Shown here one piece after another: positions 3,801 to 18,344 of a DNA stretch of 24,000 nucleotides; the first letter of the stretch is position 1, and each line of letters starts with the position of its first letter. The stretch comes from Pyrinomonadaceae bacterium (GTDB taxonomy: Bacteria; Acidobacteriota; Blastocatellia; Pyrinomonadales; Pyrinomonadaceae). The stretch lies in the NCBI GenBank assembly GCA_041394845.1, contig JAWKHL010000001.1, positions 464,116 to 488,115 on the forward strand, in the 5' to 3' direction. The translations under genes were made by a program, and so were the position numbers. The notes under the pieces are model-generated. The model was not told the origin of the DNA and did no database searches. It saw nothing but the letters and a program-made list of their open reading frames with translations.

Positions 3801-4207
3801 TCTTCCTCATTAAACCTCGAACGATCCGCCTCCATCTCCCACGAACGGACGTCGGCGGCTTTGCCGTTCAAAACCGAAACGATTATGTATGACCAGACCG
3901 GCAGGGCGTGATCCAGATCGAACTGCGACGGGACGGCCCTGTCGTTCGGGTGCGAGTGATAATAGCCGATGACGTCGAGTTTTTTCTCCCGCGCGTGGCG
4001 TTCGGCCCGGAGAACGTCTTTCGGCAGGATCAAAACGCGGTTGTGCCGTTCCGATTCTTCCATGGCGTTTTCCATCGGCAAAAGTTCGACCACCTCTTTT
4101 CGTCCGTCCTCAAACCGACCGATCAGCATCCCGCCGCATTCGTGCGGAAAAGTGCTTTCGCCGTGCCGTTCGATCTGTTCGATCAATTTGTTGTTTATCG
4201 AAATCAT
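3782..4207 (-). CDS. JAMM/MPN+ zinc metalloprotease (Mec+/HcyD-like)
   Basis: 141-aa ORF. ECGGMLIG ... HSHPNDRAVPSQFD is the complete E...HxHx7Sx2D JAMM motif. Confidence 0.85.
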   Translation of the reverse strand: MISINNKLIEQIERHGESTFPHECGGMLIGRFEDGRKEVVELLPMENAMEESERHNRVLILPKDVLRAERHAREKKLDVIGYYHSHPNDRAVPSQFDLDHALPVWSYIIVSVLNGKAADVRSWEMEADRSRFNEEEVMNDG

Positions 4208-4216
4208 ATTTTTGGT

Positions 4217-4296
4217 AATAATTGATAACGGAAAATGGATAATGGTGTTTTTTGCTCGAAAGATCTCTCATTATCCGTTATCCATCATCAATTATT
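4217..4296. repeat. Imperfect inverted repeat built from GATAAT/GGATAAC-type units; arms 4217-4244 and 4269-4296, 24-nt loop
   Basis: AATAATTGATAACGGAAAATGGATAATG versus CATTATCCGTTATCCATCATCAATTATT, about 24/28 complementary by eye. Fills the gap between the MetY-like stop (4296-4298) and the JAMM ATG (4207). Confidence 0.7.
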
Positions 4297-5483
4297 CATT
4301 TTAAGACCGCTTGCTCGATGTCGGCGATGATGTCTCCGATGTCTTCGATGCCGACCGAGATTCTGATCAATCCTTCCGAAATTCCAAGAGCGGCGCGGCG
4401 TTTCGGCGAGAGTTCACGGTGCGAACTCGTGGCCGAGTGCGAAACCAGCGTGTAAATGTCGCCGAGACTGGTTGCGCGGACCGCCAGTTTCAGATTGTCC
4501 ATCAGGCGAAAGGCCGCCTCGCGCGTGTCGTCTTTCAGTTTGATCGAGACCAGAGCTCCGCCGTGTGGATCGCGTAAAACTTTTTTTGTCAACTCTTTAT
4601 CGTCCGTTAATAGAGGATGATAAACCCTTTCGATCCGATCGTTTCCGGTCAGAGTCCCGGCCAGAATCTTTGCGTTCGAGCATTGCCTTTCGAGCCTCAA
4701 ACCGAGCGTTTTGACGCCGCGCAAAATCTGATGCGCCTCCCAGACGCTCAAAACCCCTCCGACCAGTTTCATCACGCCGACCAGATTTGGCCGGTCGAAT
4801 TCCTCGTTCGAGATGACGATCCCGCCCAGCGAATCGGCGTGTCCGCCCAGATACTTGGTCGCCGAATGGACAGAAAAATCCGCGCCCAGAGTCAAAGGCC
4901 GACACAGATAGGGCGAGGCGAACGTGTTGTCAACGATCAGGCGCGCGCCCGATTCGTGGGCGATTTCGGCGACCGCTTCGATGTCGCAGATCTTAAGCAG
5001 CGGATTGGAGATGGTTTCCGCCAAAAGCACACGCGGTTTCGTTTCCCTGGCCTCATCGCGCAAACGGTCTAAATCGTTAAAGTCGGCCGTCCGGGTTTTT
5101 ATTCCGAACGAGCCGAAGATCTTGCCCAGCAGATCGAACGACGCGCCGTAAAGATCCTGCGAGGCCAGAACGACCGCACCCGGTGCGAGTTCGCAGGCCG
5201 AAAGCGCCGCGTGAATGGCCGCCATTCCCGAAGCGTAGGCGACGGCGAATTTTCCATCTTCGATCGCCGCCAGAGATTCTTCGAGCGCCGCCACGGTCGG
5301 GTTTCCGTAGCGGGAATAAACGTAATCGCCGCCCTCACCGGCGAAAACCGCGTCCATCTGTTCCATCGAATCGTAAGTGTAAGTCGCCGTCGCATAGATC
5401 GGCGTCGCAACCGGTCTCCCGACCGGTCTCGCCCGCCTTTCCCCCGCGTGAACAAGTTTTGTGTTGATCGAAAATTCGCTCAT
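4296..5483 (-). CDS. Cys/Met-metabolism PLP-dependent enzyme (MetB/MetZ/MetY family: O-acylhomoserine sulfhydrylase or cystathionine gamma-synthase)
   Basis: ORF track gives 4296-5513, but the first 10 codons read through the GGATT repeat, so the ATG at 5483 is more likely. Contains NTKLVHAGE, ASGMAAI and FSVHSATKYLGGHADSLGG (the S-x-T-K PLP-lysine motif of this family). The subfamily cannot be resolved by eye. Confidence 0.85.
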   Translation of the reverse strand: MSEFSINTKLVHAGERRARPVGRPVATPIYATATYTYDSMEQMDAVFAGEGGDYVYSRYGNPTVAALEESLAAIEDGKFAVAYASGMAAIHAALSACELAPGAVVLASQDLYGASFDLLGKIFGSFGIKTRTADFNDLDRLRDEARETKPRVLLAETISNPLLKICDIEAVAEIAHESGARLIVDNTFASPYLCRPLTLGADFSVHSATKYLGGHADSLGGIVISNEEFDRPNLVGVMKLVGGVLSVWEAHQILRGVKTLGLRLERQCSNAKILAGTLTGNDRIERVYHPLLTDDKELTKKVLRDPHGGALVSIKLKDDTREAAFRLMDNLKLAVRATSLGDIYTLVSHSATSSHRELSPKRRAALGISEGLIRISVGIEDIGDIIADIEQAVLK

Positions 5484-5535
5484 AAATCCAATCCAATCCA
5501 ATCCAAAATCCAAAATCCGAAATCCAAAATCAAAA
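5484..5535 (-). repeat. Single-arm tandem array of GGATTTT/GGATT units (sense RNA) abutting the MetY-like start codon
   Basis: Minus-strand reading: TTTTGATTTTGGATTTCGGATTTTGGATTTTGGATTGGATTGGATTGGATTT followed directly by ATG. No inverted partner nearby. Confidence 0.8.
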
Positions 5536-5568
5536 GGCTCTCGCGCTAAAGTCTTTAGCGCGAGAGCC
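5530..5568 (-). terminator. Intrinsic terminator in the leader of the MetY-like gene (perfect 15-bp stem flanked by an A-run and a U-run)
   Basis: GGCTCTCGCGCTAAAG-TC-TTTAGCGCGAGAGCC (5536-5568). On the minus-strand RNA it is followed by UUUUGAUUUUGG. About 50 nt upstream of the ATG at 5483. Confidence 0.7.
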
Positions 5569-5765: not shown

Positions 5766-6143
5766 TCAGCAGGTCGAGTGAAACAGTCCTCCGACCGGCG
5801 TGTCTTCGGCGAGTTTGTTATAGAGTTCGACGGCCGCGCGGGTTTCTTCGACATGAACCGGGATCCCGCGCTGGCGCAGAAGATCGAGGGTTTCGGGGCA
5901 GGTCTGAAGAACAAGTTCCATGCCGCGGGTAAGGACGATGACCTGACTGCCGTGATCGAGAAGTTCCTCGACATCGGCGGGCTGAATTCCGGGCACATGC
6001 CGCGTTCCTGTCTCGCTCCAGTCCCAGTCGCGACCTCCGCCGGGATAAAGTTTGAAATCTTTTCCGAGGCCGAGCCCTTCGACTTCCATTCTTCCCCAGG
6101 AAATATGCGTAATGCGCGGTGAGCGCCCCTTTAATTCATTCAT
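5766..6143 (-). CDS. Mth938-like (DUF498/AAMDC-like) domain protein
   Basis: 125-aa ORF with a strong SD (AAGGAAGG) upstream of the ATG at 6143. ITHISWGRMEV...DFKLYPGG...WDWSETGTRHVPGIQPADVEELL...VIVLTRGM resembles the Mth938 domain family. Recognised from memory only. Confidence 0.65.
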   Translation of the reverse strand: MNELKGRSPRITHISWGRMEVEGLGLGKDFKLYPGGGRDWDWSETGTRHVPGIQPADVEELLDHGSQVIVLTRGMELVLQTCPETLDLLRQRGIPVHVEETRAAVELYNKLAEDTPVGGLFHSTC

Positions 6144-6466: not shown

Positions 6467-6523
6467 ACAGGAAAAAAGTCGATCGGCACGCTCTTAAATT
6501 GTCAAAGAACCATTGGAATTTGA

Positions 6524-6590
6524 GATTTGGGATTTGGGATTGCGGATTTTCTGGCAATCGAGCCAAATCCGCAATCCGCAATCCCAAATC
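6524..6590. repeat. Heptamer-built inverted repeat (units GGGATTT/GCGGATT); arms 6524-6549 and 6565-6590, 15-nt loop
   Basis: GATTTGGGATTTGGGATTGCGGATTT versus AAATCCGCAATCCGCAATCCCAAATC, 24/26 complementary. The right arm overlaps the cysteine synthase stop codon (6589-6591). Confidence 0.8.
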
Positions 6591-7542
6591 AAAAAGTTTG
6601 ATCCCAAAATCTTTCGCTCAAATATCTGCCTCCGCCGTCGCAGAGGATCGTGACGATGACGGCTTTTTCCTTTAGTTCACGGGCTAGATTTATTGAGGCC
6701 GCTACGTTTGCGCCGGAACTGATGCCGACGAAGAGTCCTTCCTGGCGGGCCAGTCGGCGCGTCATCTCTTGCGCTTCTTCTGTCGAGATCTCCAGATTTT
6801 CGTCGGCCAGTCCGGCCTGGTAAATGCCGGGAACGCGGGCCGATCCCAGATGTTTCATTCCTTCGAGACCGTGGAGAGGCGAGTCGGGCTGGACGGAAAT
6901 CGTTTGCACCATCGGGTTTATTTCTTTCAGACGGCGCGAGGTCCCGGTGAAAGTGCCGGTCGTTCCCAAACCGGCCACAAAATGTGTGATCCGCCCGAAT
7001 GTCTGCCTCCAGATCTCCGGTGCGGTCGAGTGAAAATGCGCCCGCCAGTTGGCCTCGTTGTTGTATTGATCGGGATAGAAGTAGCGGTCGGGGAATTGGC
7101 GGACAAGTTCTTTGGCCCGCGCCTGAGCCCCGTCGGTCCCTTCGAGCGCGTCGGTTTCGATGATCTCCGCGCCGTAAAGCCGCAAAATTCGCTTTCGTTC
7201 GGGGCTGGCGTTTTTCGGCAGGGTCAAAGCCACCCGATACCCGCGCGCCGCACCGATCATCGCATAAGCGATGCCGGTGTTTCCGCTGGTCGCATCGAGG
7301 ATCGTTTTGCTTTTGGTGAGTTCGCCCGAATTTTCGCCTTCGAGTATCATTGCCAAGGCGGCCCGGTCCTTGACCGAACCGCCCGGATTCATAAATTCGG
7401 CCTTGGCGTAGATCTCGATTTCGTCCGGCAGATCGTCGATGACGTTCCTCAAACGGATCAAGGGCGTATTGCCGATCCGCGATTCGAGCGAGTTATCCTC
7501 GGTTTGATAAGTTATTTTCGTTTCTAAAACAGCCGTTTGCAT
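6589..7542 (-). CDS. Cysteine synthase, fold-type II PLP enzyme (CysK/CysM family)
   Basis: ORF track gives 6589-7566. The ATG at 7542 has an AGGGG SD upstream. Motifs: IGNTPLIRL, NPGGSVKDRAA (PLP lysine), SGNTGIAYA, GTTGTFTG, GISSGANV. Confidence 0.85.
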   Translation of the reverse strand: MQTAVLETKITYQTEDNSLESRIGNTPLIRLRNVIDDLPDEIEIYAKAEFMNPGGSVKDRAALAMILEGENSGELTKSKTILDATSGNTGIAYAMIGAARGYRVALTLPKNASPERKRILRLYGAEIIETDALEGTDGAQARAKELVRQFPDRYFYPDQYNNEANWRAHFHSTAPEIWRQTFGRITHFVAGLGTTGTFTGTSRRLKEINPMVQTISVQPDSPLHGLEGMKHLGSARVPGIYQAGLADENLEISTEEAQEMTRRLARQEGLFVGISSGANVAASINLARELKEKAVIVTILCDGGGRYLSERFWDQTF

Positions 7543-7555
7543 AAATACCCCTGAT

Positions 7556-7610
7556 CGAAAAAACAAAGCCGACCGCGAAATTTAATGTTCGAGACATTCA
7601 CGGTCGGCTG
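7556..7610 (-). terminator. Intrinsic terminator (attenuator) between the Cys-rich leader ORF and cysteine synthase
   Basis: Minus-strand RNA: A8 run, CAGCCGACCG (7610-7601) ... CGGUCGGCU (7575-7567) with an inner AAUGU/ACAUU stem, then UUUGUUUUUU. Ends 14 nt before the cysteine synthase ATG. Confidence 0.7.
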
Positions 7611-7635
7611 TTTTTTTTGTATTTTAGCGTTTACA

Positions 7636-7734
7636 TCAAGTTGTCCTAACGCTAAACCTCAGCCGCCGCGCCCGACAGGCGCATCCGTTACAACAGCAAC
7701 AACAAATTCGGATTTTCGACTGAGTTTTCATCAT
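7636..7734 (-). CDS. 32-codon Cys-rich leader peptide ORF (MMKTQSKIRICCCCCNGCACRARRLRFSVRTT)
   Basis: Own translation of the minus strand: ATG ATG AAA ACT CAG TCG AAA ATC CGA ATT TGT TGT TGC TGT TGT AAC GGA TGC GCC TGT CGG GCG CGG CGG CTG AGG TTT AGC GTT AGG ACA ACT TGA. Seven of 32 codons are Cys, five of them consecutive (7704-7690). Too short to appear in the ORF track. SD is weak or absent. Confidence 0.6.
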   Translation of the reverse strand: MMKTQSKIRICCCCCNGCACRARRLRFSVRTT

Positions 7735-7754
7735 TTTCTAAATCTTTACAAAAA

Positions 7755-7784
7755 AGTCTACATTCCGGACGCAGACGATGTCAA
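7755..7784 (-). promoter_or_regulatory. Sigma-70-like promoter TTGACA-N18-TAGACT upstream of the leader ORF
   Basis: Minus strand: TTGACA (7784-7779), 18-nt spacer, TAGACT (7760-7755). About 20 nt upstream of the leader ATG. Confidence 0.5.
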
Positions 7785-7795
7785 GATGGTTTTGG

Positions 7796-7871
7796 ATTTT
7801 GGGTTTTAGATTTTGGATTTTGGATTAAATTTCGAGGATAAATCCAAAATCCAAAATCTAAAACCCAAAAT
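7796..7871. repeat. Perfect 31-bp inverted repeat built from GGATTTT/GGGTTTTA units, 14-nt loop
   Basis: ATTTTGGGTTTTAGATTTTGGATTTTGGATT (7796-7826) and its exact reverse complement (7841-7871). Confidence 0.9.
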
Positions 7872-7883
7872 TTAAAAGAGATG

Positions 7884-17600: not shown

Positions 17601-18271
17601 TCGGCGGTTTTGAATTTCGCGCCGGAGCCAGAAATAACAATAATCTGATAAAAACGGACCGGAACGGGGCGACCTCCGTCATCAAAGAGGGAATTTACAG
17701 TTCGCCGCTGGTAACGCCCGACGGCCGATGGGTGCTGGCGAGCAAAAGAATTACCTGGGGGAAAAACCCTTTTATCGTCCGGGTCAACCCCCGGACCGGT
17801 CGCGAGTTGCCGGTCGAACTGGAACCGGCCGACTATTTGTCTCCGATCTGTTTTATCCCTTCGCACAACCGGGTTTTGGTGGTCGCTTATAAAAAAGCCG
17901 AAGCGGGAAGTTCGAACTTTTGGGATGAAAAGGCGATGCGATATTATCTGCTCGATGCTTCGACCGGGGCGATTCAAAAGGTCAAAGGCGAATTCCGTCC
18001 CCTGATGCAACAATCCTATCGCGGCCTGCAACCGACGGGGCGGCCCGAGGAATTCTGGGCGGCCATCTACGATCGGGAAAAGGATTCGACCTCGGTCGGA
18101 CGTTACAACGCCGGATCGTTCACCTTTGAAACGGTCCTTACAATTCCCGGGATCGAACTCGACAGCATGAACATCTGGGTCGATGAAACGGAAGGCAAGA
18201 TCTATTTCGTGTACCGCAGCGAAACGGCCGGAACCGGACATCTGTTGAGGTTGCCGCTTCCGGGGAAATGA
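14681..18271 (+). CDS. Large secreted protein of unknown function: signal peptide + HEAT/ARM-like repeat region + conserved C-terminal module (approx. 16838-18271)
   Basis: 1196-aa ORF with a GGAG SD. Signal peptide MRHFIFSAVLILIFLPLLAAA|QT. HEAT-like stretches (NPSVRSAAVRNLIKI; DLRASAAKALGRYRAPEAASALRHAL). The C-terminal module is collinear with the 485-aa paralog (CEYGC...GGGRR, AVWKDGDDLRVLVED, SPLVTPDGRWVLASK, FRPLMQQSYRGLQPT, EFWAAIYD, VGRYN, NIWVDETEG). Confidence 0.85.
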   Translation: MRHFIFSAVLILIFLPLLAAAQTPGNAKLLEELLDFPAPPRVVKDAKETGEKKRPAEFFDSRNVPADNAPIGDLLDYWKYQSSNYNDFRYNVKPSKESLKAILEALEENPAQLSDFLSILPTDPEVAEVVKRIYERELQSDDLNSSLLQNVRNWLKYHSDTFITELQQGARTVNASGNGEDGAGIENQNELISLAEVDWDLAMPIVEQLETKDSASPLFTLAQYVRYHHALAAENKSETKKFRSILQKIVENKKAPYKSRDLAMDALVLGGDYEGRTEWYLSLLADETLLELQENGFTGLTTLPRHSPRSREDWIPQMVKLLGSDNPSVRSAAVRNLIKIADINNPDVIKGLLPWLADPEWAKESDDDERLSLIRMLGEMDVPESVPGLISVVLKEEEDLRASAAKALGRYRAPEAASALRHALQNETDSDYRKEIISGLIACGGLTAFEQMTGLEAYAAQISTEEGEEAYENYTYGYDEDDTPPMPVEVSIGEFLSEIEDPSGELAYQVIKRVGVLRRENPPVAAILLGFMQKWDHRLIDLEMFNWLENGKADADTVLRILAKRENIRRNIPNELAGSGGKNALTRGIAATVAGDPVRMSGILSEGETEERIALLTAARLTRTILPVPEVGALLSSPDPLLSRAARRYLETEDSAAARSLILAKYPDEIPILGSRRAFIPDLKRDYSENDALDELFESVTGNYFYSGNYTRLIEMEDRFRDEIRKDSELQAVFAFVGEKEGGEQVIRVFPDRITYSIYPDQAHFREKNISSEDYETFFNHLVGAGIDNLGPMAVGTCEYGCSGEEFIMIGRGGGRRIYFRGLSTPKELTGLKRIFEDLGRENMSLRYRLEDRIKGLEILLAEPGLVAHAVWKDGDDLRVLVEDLTKKGDVFTRLFKQEARESLDGPIDYQRRNELQQKRRERLVSDFFAWRGFYDGKLTGETVAQPEGIAYLSDFPYEEFLSFSNPRTFQKQFGGFEFRAGARNNNNLIKTDRNGATSVIKEGIYSSPLVTPDGRWVLASKRITWGKNPFIVRVNPRTGRELPVELEPADYLSPICFIPSHNRVLVVAYKKAEAGSSNFWDEKAMRYYLLDASTGAIQKVKGEFRPLMQQSYRGLQPTGRPEEFWAAIYDREKDSTSVGRYNAGSFTFETVLTIPGIELDSMNIWVDETEGKIYFVYRSETAGTGHLLRLPLPGK

Positions 18272-18306
18272 TTCGATTTTGGATTTTGGATTTTGGATTT
18301 CGGATT
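18272..18306 (+). repeat. Single-arm tandem GGATTTT array starting 1 nt after the stop codon of the 1196-aa gene
   Basis: TTCGATTTTGGATTTTGGATTTTGGATTTCGGATT. No inverted partner. Lies 39 nt upstream of the next ATG (18345). Confidence 0.8.
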
Positions 18307-18344
18307 GTTTTTCTTCTGAGGGGATTTGGGGTTGAGGGATTTTT

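Follow-up and report, generated by a model that had tools for sequence, protein, structure and literature searches.

The cysM locus and its leader

The 24-kb stretch of DNA analysed here (the window), placed in the Pyrinomonadaceae (Acidobacteriota, Blastocatellia) by its cysteine synthase, carries a cysteine synthase gene of the CysK/CysM family (hereafter cysM), preceded on the same strand by a short leader open reading frame (ORF) with a run of cysteine codons and by an intrinsic terminator (Table 1; all leader coordinates refer to the minus strand). The elements that a first-pass annotation of the sequence had listed (the ORF, its Cys codons, the hairpins, an A8 run, the terminator and a promoter-like site) all match the minus-strand sequence at the positions given for them. 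That annotation had read them as a cysteine attenuator resembling those of trpL, hisL and pheL, a reading that is supported by the conservation of the leaders, by an alternative pairing between two of their segments and by the folds of the nascent RNA, all described below. We consider it likely that the leader is a cysteine-responsive, ribosome-mediated transcription attenuator of cysM, which would report the supply of charged tRNA-Cys.

Table 1 Positions of the leader elements, the regulated gene and neighbouring features in the window.
Feature	Position	Strand	Remarks
-35-like hexamer TTGACA	7784-7779	minus	promoter scan; 10 of 12 with TAGACT, 18-nt spacer
-10-like hexamer TAGACT	7760-7755	minus	window only; doubles as the first bases of the 5' block
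5' block TAGACTTTTTTGTAAAGATT(T/C)A.A	7760-7737	minus	nearly invariant; unique in the window, 0 expected by chance
Leader ORF, 32 codons, MMKTQSKIRICCCCCNGCACRARRLRFSVRTT and stop	7734-7636	minus	ORF listing; same strand as cysM
Segment 1 CUCAGUCG, leader codons 4-6	7724-7717	minus	complementary to CGGCUGAG at 7665-7658
Five consecutive Cys codons TGTTGTTGCTGTTGT, leader codons 11-15	7704-7690	minus	proposed sensor
Two more Cys codons, TGC GCC TGT	TGC 7683-7681, TGT 7677-7675	minus	within the small hairpin
Small hairpin GCGCC-UGUCG-GGCGC	7682-7668	minus	minimum-energy fold
Segment 2 CGCGGCGGCUGAG	7670-7658	minus	7665-7658 pairs with segment 1, 7670-7660 with segment 3; includes GCGGCGGCUG at 7669-7660
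Hairpin H, 9 bp, UUUAGCGUU with AACGCUAAA	7656-7648 with 7631-7623	minus	leader stop TGA (7638-7636) in the loop
A8 run	7618-7611	minus	
Segment 3 CAGCCGACCGUG	7610-7599	minus	pairs with segment 2; also the terminator 5' arm
Intrinsic terminator, 13-bp stem, 17-nt loop, U tract UUGUUUUUU	stem 7609-7597/7579-7567, U tract 7566-7558	minus	-22.3 kcal/mol
Segment 4	7579-7567	minus	3' arm of the terminator
Cysteine synthase (CysK/CysM family), 317 aa	6589-7542	minus	domain and profile matches
DUF498/Mth938-like protein	5766-6143	minus	3' of cysM, same strand
Cys/Met-metabolism enzyme dependent on pyridoxal 5'-phosphate (PLP)	4296-5513	minus	3' of cysM, same strand
Radical S-adenosylmethionine (SAM) protein, 678 aa	10488-12524	plus	N-terminal HMPTM-type zinc ribbon (PF23545)
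Tandem arrays of TTTTGGA or its complement	7790-7877, 5499-5536, 6519-6595, 18270-18307		intergenic

The cysteine synthase matched the PALP domain (5e-73) and the TIGR01136 cysKM profile (355.8 bits, over the cut-off of 344), and reached 375 bits with the TIGR01138 cysM profile, slightly under its cut-off of 394. The protein has a single Cys residue among its 317 amino acids, and can therefore be made in cysteine shortage. No other run of at least three Cys codons is present in the window, whichever frame is read, and shuffled windows had on average 0.005 runs of five or more. Compared with its dinucleotide shuffles, the 221-nt leader RNA is more stably folded (z = -3.66), none of the 200 shuffles folding as well.

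Conservation of the leader among relatives

The 500 nt 5' of each cysM orthologue were scanned in the 80 species genomes with the best-matching cysteine synthases (61-77% protein identity), and short ORFs with Cys runs preceded cysM in about 35 of these genomes. Twenty-two of these loci share the 5' block (TAGACTTTTTTGTAAAGATTCAAAT), the terminator and a leader of the type MNKxxxKNQxCCCCCKxHRLRFGVxxM followed by a stop. The scan of metagenome contigs for the 5' block returned 120 loci, 52 of them with a Cys-rich leader; a cysM orthologue (67-78% identity) lies behind all 42 metagenome leaders having enough downstream DNA, its start 190-420 nt from the 5' block, and the remaining matches to the block are unrelated AT-rich sequences. 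The first-pass annotation had proposed, as a check on its reading, to look for a Cys-run ORF with a terminator upstream of orthologues, and this arrangement is conserved in the 22 genome loci and in 39 further metagenome loci. Together they make up the alignment of 61 distinct leaders (A1) to which the counts below refer.

All 61 leaders have a Cys cluster, a terminator and a homologous ORF whose ATG stands at the same aligned position. The number of Cys codons per leader ranges from 2 to 8 (median 5), Cys accounting for 17.9% of the residues, and the first of them is at codon 9-13 in 59 leaders; leader length ranges from 17 to 33 codons, the number and spacing of the Cys codons vary freely, and a C-A-C motif is present in the long-type leaders. 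The loop of hairpin H contains the stop codon in 52 leaders; in seven others the ORF ends within segment 2 or ahead of it, and no stop codon lies past H. The nucleotides of the CGGCUG core of segment 2 are unchanged in every member.

Among the 44 runs of at least four Cys codons in 1.13 Mb of the relatives' loci, 41 fall in leader-type short open frames. There was no evidence of a wider regulon: the 5' block occurs once in the window, and the metagenome Cys leaders with enough downstream DNA all precede cysM. Judged from these loci, the leader element is specific to cysM.

One 3.9-kb metagenome contig (L157) has the 5' block and the leader start twice on the same strand, 3.8 kb apart (75-94 and 3864-3882); behind the first copy only a 60-aa fragment of cysM was matched.

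Mutually exclusive pairings

Four segments of the leader RNA can form three successive helices, 1:2, 2:3 and 3:4, the last being the terminator. Segment 2 is common to 1:2 and 2:3, and segment 3 is common to 2:3 and the terminator, so that the pairings exclude one another. Each helix was counted separately on A1, with the partner slid along the alignment and 500 shuffles as controls (Table 2). The duplex energies in the window are -13.9 (1:2), -20.8 (2:3) and -25.0 kcal/mol (3:4).

Table 2 Pairing and covariation of the leader helices in the 61 aligned leaders.
Helix	Cells paired	Cells paired, partner slid	Compensatory changes and shuffles
Terminator (3:4)	91%	25-45%	9 of 12 pairs compensatory; none of 500 shuffles as good on any measure
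Hairpin H	85%	34-50%	6 of 7 pairs compensatory
Antiterminator (2:3)	79%	17-47%	24 cells changed on both sides, reached by 4 of 500 shuffles
Helix 1:2	76%	20-47%	mainly A/G and C/U changes that keep wobble pairing
Small hairpin (about half of the family, ~30 sequences)	89%	23-51%	4 of 5 pairs compensatory

The antiterminator CGGCUG:CAGCCG suggested by the first-pass annotation is borne out by its conservation (Table 2), by its presence in a sister family with another terminator and by the nascent-RNA folds, and it is longer than had been noted: in the window, CGCGGCGGCUG (7670-7660) pairs with CAGCCG-A-CCGUG (7610-7599) over 11 bp with one bulge, a duplex energy equalled by 0.7% of shuffles. 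Its covariation score was matched by 1 of 500 shuffles. The earlier set of helices (hairpin, terminator and antiterminator) stands but had overlooked segment 1, which pairs with segment 2 in the minimum-energy fold and would act as an anti-antiterminator. The hairpin that holds the leader stop codon, rightly seen by the first-pass annotation but taken as a side feature, covaries and appears to be an integral part of the switch. The support that the alignment gives is strong for the terminator and hairpin H and moderate for 2:3 and 1:2. The small hairpin could serve as a pause or spacer hairpin. RNAalifold, run on the 61 sequences, returned just the terminator plus a trivial hairpin of the 5' block; the absence of the other helices is expected, as they exclude each other and a single structure is reported.

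The spacing of the elements is constrained on the 5' side of the Cys codons. The first Cys codon follows the AUG at a fixed 30 nt and the end of segment 1 at 12 nt, a value that does not vary within the interquartile range; segment 2 comes at least 15 nt after this codon in every member (median 31), and the stop codon is a median of 24 nt from segment 3.

A sister family in distant Pyrinomonadaceae (L044, L046, L051, L052 and L055) has a different terminator and a leader of the form ...CC.GRDRE..C..., and is devoid of the 5' block. Its segment 2, CGCGA[C/U]CGG, is a copy of the 3' arm of its own terminator, and the 2:3 duplexes reach -19 to -24 kcal/mol, compared to -13 to -15 for shuffles. 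This terminator-mimic segment is, in our comparison of sequences, the strongest covariation-type evidence for 2:3. Conserved and mutually exclusive pairings are the signature of an attenuator and, as judged from the aligned leaders, the full 1:2 / 2:3 / 3:4 logic is present.

Folding of the nascent RNA and proposed mechanism

The nascent RNA of the window up to 7576, which is without segment 4, folds with 2:3 stacked on hairpin H. When the RNA 3' of a ribosome stalled at the first Cys codon was folded, at least 4 of the 12 bases of the terminator 5' arm paired with segment 2 in 52 of the 61 leaders (median 7 of 12; mean 2.8 when segment 2 was shuffled). In every one of the 61 leaders, the free full-length RNA formed the terminator, with 9-12 of its 12 pairs.

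These folds are consistent with the following sequence of events, in which the leader would be translated by a ribosome following RNA polymerase closely enough for its position to decide the fold. Ribosomes usually cover about 12-15 nt on each side of the P and A sites. When cysteine is plentiful, the ribosome would pass the Cys codons and reach the stop codon, melting hairpin H and standing between segments 2 and 3; segment 2 would re-pair with segment 1 behind it, neither H nor 2:3 could form, and the 3:4 terminator would halt RNA polymerase at the U tract (7566-7558), before cysM. When Cys-tRNA is scarce, the ribosome would come to a halt while an early Cys codon (from 7704 on) occupies the A site. 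It would then stand between segments 1 and 2, reaching segment 1 with its trailing edge, preventing 1:2 and leaving segment 2 free to pair with segment 3 as soon as this emerges, the new helix stacking on H; with the 5' arm of the terminator thus sequestered, polymerase would continue into cysM, which would in this way respond to cysteine. If the leader is not translated at all, 1:2 would form first, giving termination by default.

Several observations weigh against this mechanism. Segment 1 ends 12 nt 5' of the Cys codons, so that a stalled ribosome would cover a few of its bases at most, and the exclusion of 1:2 would have to be steric; similarly, the stop codon is more than 20 nt past segment 2 in most members, and the block of 2:3 would depend on sterics and on the loss of H. 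The 2:3 duplex of the window exceeds 1:2 in stability (-20.8 against -13.9 kcal/mol), which makes default termination dependent on kinetics. Folding with the ribosome positions constrained, which the first-pass annotation had recommended, did not separate the two states: full-length equilibrium folds gave the terminator under every mask, and 1:2 even closed around the masked ribosome. Such masking is uninformative because attenuation is kinetic, and the nascent-RNA folds were used instead. The numbers of 2:3 and 1:2 pairs changed on both sides were matched by 188 and 123 of 500 shuffles, respectively, a modest covariation attributable to the high conservation of both segments. Nine of the 61 leaders are without two adjacent Cys codons. 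A Shine-Dalgarno sequence is not recognisable ahead of the leader ORF, which makes its translation an assumption. Finally, three loci that keep the 5' block deviate from the pattern: one has no leader ORF (L005), and two have neither the leader nor the terminator (L033, L178).

In the first of these three loci (at ~2760-2900), a deletion that begins with the AUG and extends to the 3' arm of hairpin H has taken the whole leader ORF, and the 5' block and the terminator remain. In the other two, the short ORF ahead of cysM (MSIFR.E.FFNRCSS and stop) has no cluster of Cys codons.

The 5' block and the promoter

The 5' block is nearly invariant in the 61 leaders, though their cysM proteins differ by 25-35%, and nearly all of the 19 invariant columns of A1 lie within it (columns 1-24). 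No recognisable Shine-Dalgarno sequence was found ahead of the leader AUG or within the block. The sequence TTGAC is present in all 57 family members with enough upstream DNA; in 55 of these 57 relatives TTGACA stands 30-31 nt 5' of the TAGAC block, and the commonest hexamer 17 nt after it is TAAATT, 8 nt upstream of the position of TAGACT in the window. The family promoter is most likely TTGACA-N17-TAAATT, and its position makes the 5' block most likely a 5' untranslated region (UTR), which is probably also the translation-initiation region of the leader.

The promoter TTGACA-N18-TAGACT named in the first-pass annotation is present in the window, where it is the top promoter-like match of the region, but it is peculiar to this sequence and differs in spacing from that of the family. 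It is plausible as a promoter, one produced by local rearrangement. The distance from the end of the predicted promoter to the leader AUG is 20 nt in the window and about 35 nt in the family. Compared to L001-L031, the window looks as if it had lost about 12 nt beside a heptamer-repeat hairpin: this hairpin of about 88 nt (7790-7877) is nearly perfect, is built from two inverted TTTTGGA arrays and adjoins the leader promoter on its 5' side.

Alternative explanations

The 24-nt 5' block is the most conserved part of the leader and its function is unexplained, which leaves room for a switch that is real but reads another input (a protein or ligand acting on the block or on hairpin H, or the general speed of translation or transcription), with the Cys codons secondary or a second input. 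Such a switch would also fit the locus that has lost the leader ORF but neither the block nor the terminator, and a geometry unlike that of trpL. It would leave without explanation the Cys clusters of all 61 leaders, whose distances to the AUG and to segment 1 are fixed, and the sister family that has no block and still has a Cys cluster and a terminator-mimic segment; moreover, no known riboswitch or T-box matched the leader, and the block is confined to the cysM locus. We regard this explanation as unlikely.

The peptide itself could be the product of the leader: a stable and functional Cys-rich micropeptide, binding metal or taking part in redox chemistry, with the hairpin and U tract as its own terminator and an incidental or operonic link to cysM. 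In favour of this, the peptide is conserved, its N-terminus is basic and it contains 2-8 Cys residues; activity in trans is also on record for some leader peptides, peTrpL of Sinorhizobium being an example (PMC7298713). Past the Cys run, however, the RNA is conserved and the peptide is not. In 49 of the 61 leaders the core of segment 2 encodes Arg-Leu; it is in another frame in five, contains a stop in four and follows an earlier stop in three; segment 2 is thus kept, with unchanged nucleotides, in 12 leaders despite a frame shift or an early stop, which indicates a constraint on the RNA and not on the peptide. Leader length and the number and spacing of the Cys residues vary, and the conserved alternative pairing over the terminator arm would be needless for a plain terminator. 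The functional micropeptide was rejected on the frame-shift evidence, and we give it very little credence.

Control might instead be translational as in mycobacteria, stalling on the Cys codons remodelling the RNA so that the cysM ribosome-binding site is exposed, or acting via Rho, and the terminator not being conditional. This is the only mechanism shown experimentally for Cys-run leaders (10.1101/834739), and in the window the U tract ends just 15 nt ahead of the cysM ATG (7542-7540). A canonical intrinsic terminator, with a GC-rich stem and a U tract, is nevertheless present in all members, and its distance from the cysM start varies across the family from about 15 to more than 100 nt, which places the cysM ribosome-binding site outside the conserved structure; translational control of this kind is therefore highly improbable here. 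A chance pattern or annotation artefact, that is, a fortuitous ORF in a structured 5' UTR, was rejected and is effectively refuted by the conservation of the ORF and its Cys cluster in 61 distinct sequences and in a second family, a run of five Cys codons being expected only 0.005 times per window.

Diverged leaders in other Acidobacteriota

A further arrangement was found in four loci (L059, L068, L071 and L072), in which an upstream ORF of 16-22 codons with two Cys clusters (e.g. MLMTCCNEYDKPCCCCL and stop) is not accompanied by a terminator and runs across the start of cysM in a different frame (a region of about 70 nt). The sole in-frame ATG of cysM lies between these clusters; in the cysM frame, the second of them encodes Val-Val-Val-Val.

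A broader interpretation, which we put forward tentatively and hold to be rather doubtful, is that cysteine-sensing leader ORFs at cysM evolved several times in the Acidobacteriota in mechanistically different designs (two terminator-type families of unrelated sequence and the overlapping-ORF design), and that there is in addition a second input through the 5' block (a bound protein, or a special initiation signal independent of a Shine-Dalgarno sequence) or through a leader RNA or peptide acting in trans. If so, the cysM locus would be a natural comparison set for the rise and diversification of ribosome-based amino-acid sensors.

Neighbourhood of cysM

Two genes follow cysM on the same strand, encoding a DUF498/Mth938-like protein and a PLP enzyme of Cys/Met metabolism related to methionine gamma-lyase, cystathionine gamma-synthase and O-succinylhomoserine sulfhydrylase (Table 1). 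The arrangement differs in Pyrinomonas methylaliphatogenes (L026), where cysM directly follows the C-terminal end of a gene similar to that for the PLP enzyme; a Cys-run leader was not found in the 500 nt 5' of cysM in strain K22 of this species (L026). The radical SAM protein encoded on the plus strand has no evident link to the leader. The heptamer TTTTGGA or its complement has 20 matches in the window, compared to 0.3 expected, in intergenic tandem arrays (Table 1).

Comparison with known systems

The search of the whole window against Rfam gave no match at the gathering score. At E-values up to 10, all scores in the region 7480-7880 were far below gathering, with no amino-acid leader, riboswitch or T-box on the leader; the strongest were microRNA-precursor models on the 88-nt repeat hairpin, and are spurious. 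Among open-access papers and bioRxiv preprints we found no Cys leader with a terminator and nothing on Acidobacteria. In a published survey, the attenuators predicted in Acidobacteria were almost wholly unannotated (PMC2965389).

If the proposed attenuator is confirmed, cysteine would join the list of amino acids sensed by terminator-type attenuators, the prior evidence for Cys coming from Actinobacteria, without terminators, and the one studied case being translational. The more than 60 natural variants are a ready-made mutational series, and the architecture departs from the trp model in ways that can be tested, with the stop codon in the loop of a clamp hairpin and segment 1 one trailing edge 5' of the sensor codons. 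The leader family could also yield a covariance model for annotating cysM regulation in soil metagenomes.

Transcription attenuation by leader peptides is textbook knowledge for Trp, His, Leu, Thr, Phe and Ile/Val. The acidobacterial leader shares with trpL, hisL, leuL, thrL, pheL and ivbL/ilvL of E. coli a leader ORF rich in codons for the end product, the exclusive 1:2, 2:3 and 3:4 pairings with 3:4 as an intrinsic terminator ahead of the first biosynthetic gene and, as proposed here, a fold chosen by the position of the ribosome. It differs from them in its cysteine signal and its acidobacterial host, and has no sequence or Rfam relationship to them. The geometry is also different: segment 1 contains the regulatory codons in trpL, whereas here it lies 12 nt upstream of the Cys codons; an extra, covarying stop-codon hairpin stands between segments 2 and 3, which the ribosome is proposed to melt, in place of covering segment 2; and instead of a visible Shine-Dalgarno sequence there is a nearly invariant A/U-rich 5' block. 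The Cys T-box and the SAM (S-box) riboswitches likewise control premature termination at cysteine and methionine genes, but do so through a fold that binds tRNA or a ligand, and not through a translated ORF.

The statement of the first-pass annotation that cysteine is absent from the classical attenuators holds for the terminator type, but overlooks work in Actinobacteria (PMC1262725, 10.1101/834739). Leaders with Cys runs were predicted there by Seliverstov et al. (2005, PMC1262725), and in Mycobacterium smegmatis Canestrari et al. (2020, 10.1101/834739) described leaderless polycysteine short ORFs that respond to cysteine and free a sequestered Shine-Dalgarno sequence, the stalling of ribosomes on the poly-Cys leader ORF controlling cysteine genes in mycobacteria. 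The actinobacterial and acidobacterial leaders have in common the consecutive Cys codons in a short ORF 5' of cysteine-metabolism genes and stalling as the sensor (proposed in the present case). The actinobacterial ORFs are on leaderless mRNA and without conserved terminators, whereas the leader described here has a predicted 5' UTR, a canonical terminator and a conserved antiterminator; the mycobacterial case is translational, based on Shine-Dalgarno sequestration, and belongs to another phylum, with no sequence similarity to the acidobacterial leader. The principle of attenuation and the sensing of Cys by leader ORFs were thus known, and what appears to be new, on the sequence evidence presented here, is a terminator-type, trpL-like attenuator keyed to cysteine, with its geometry and its phylum.

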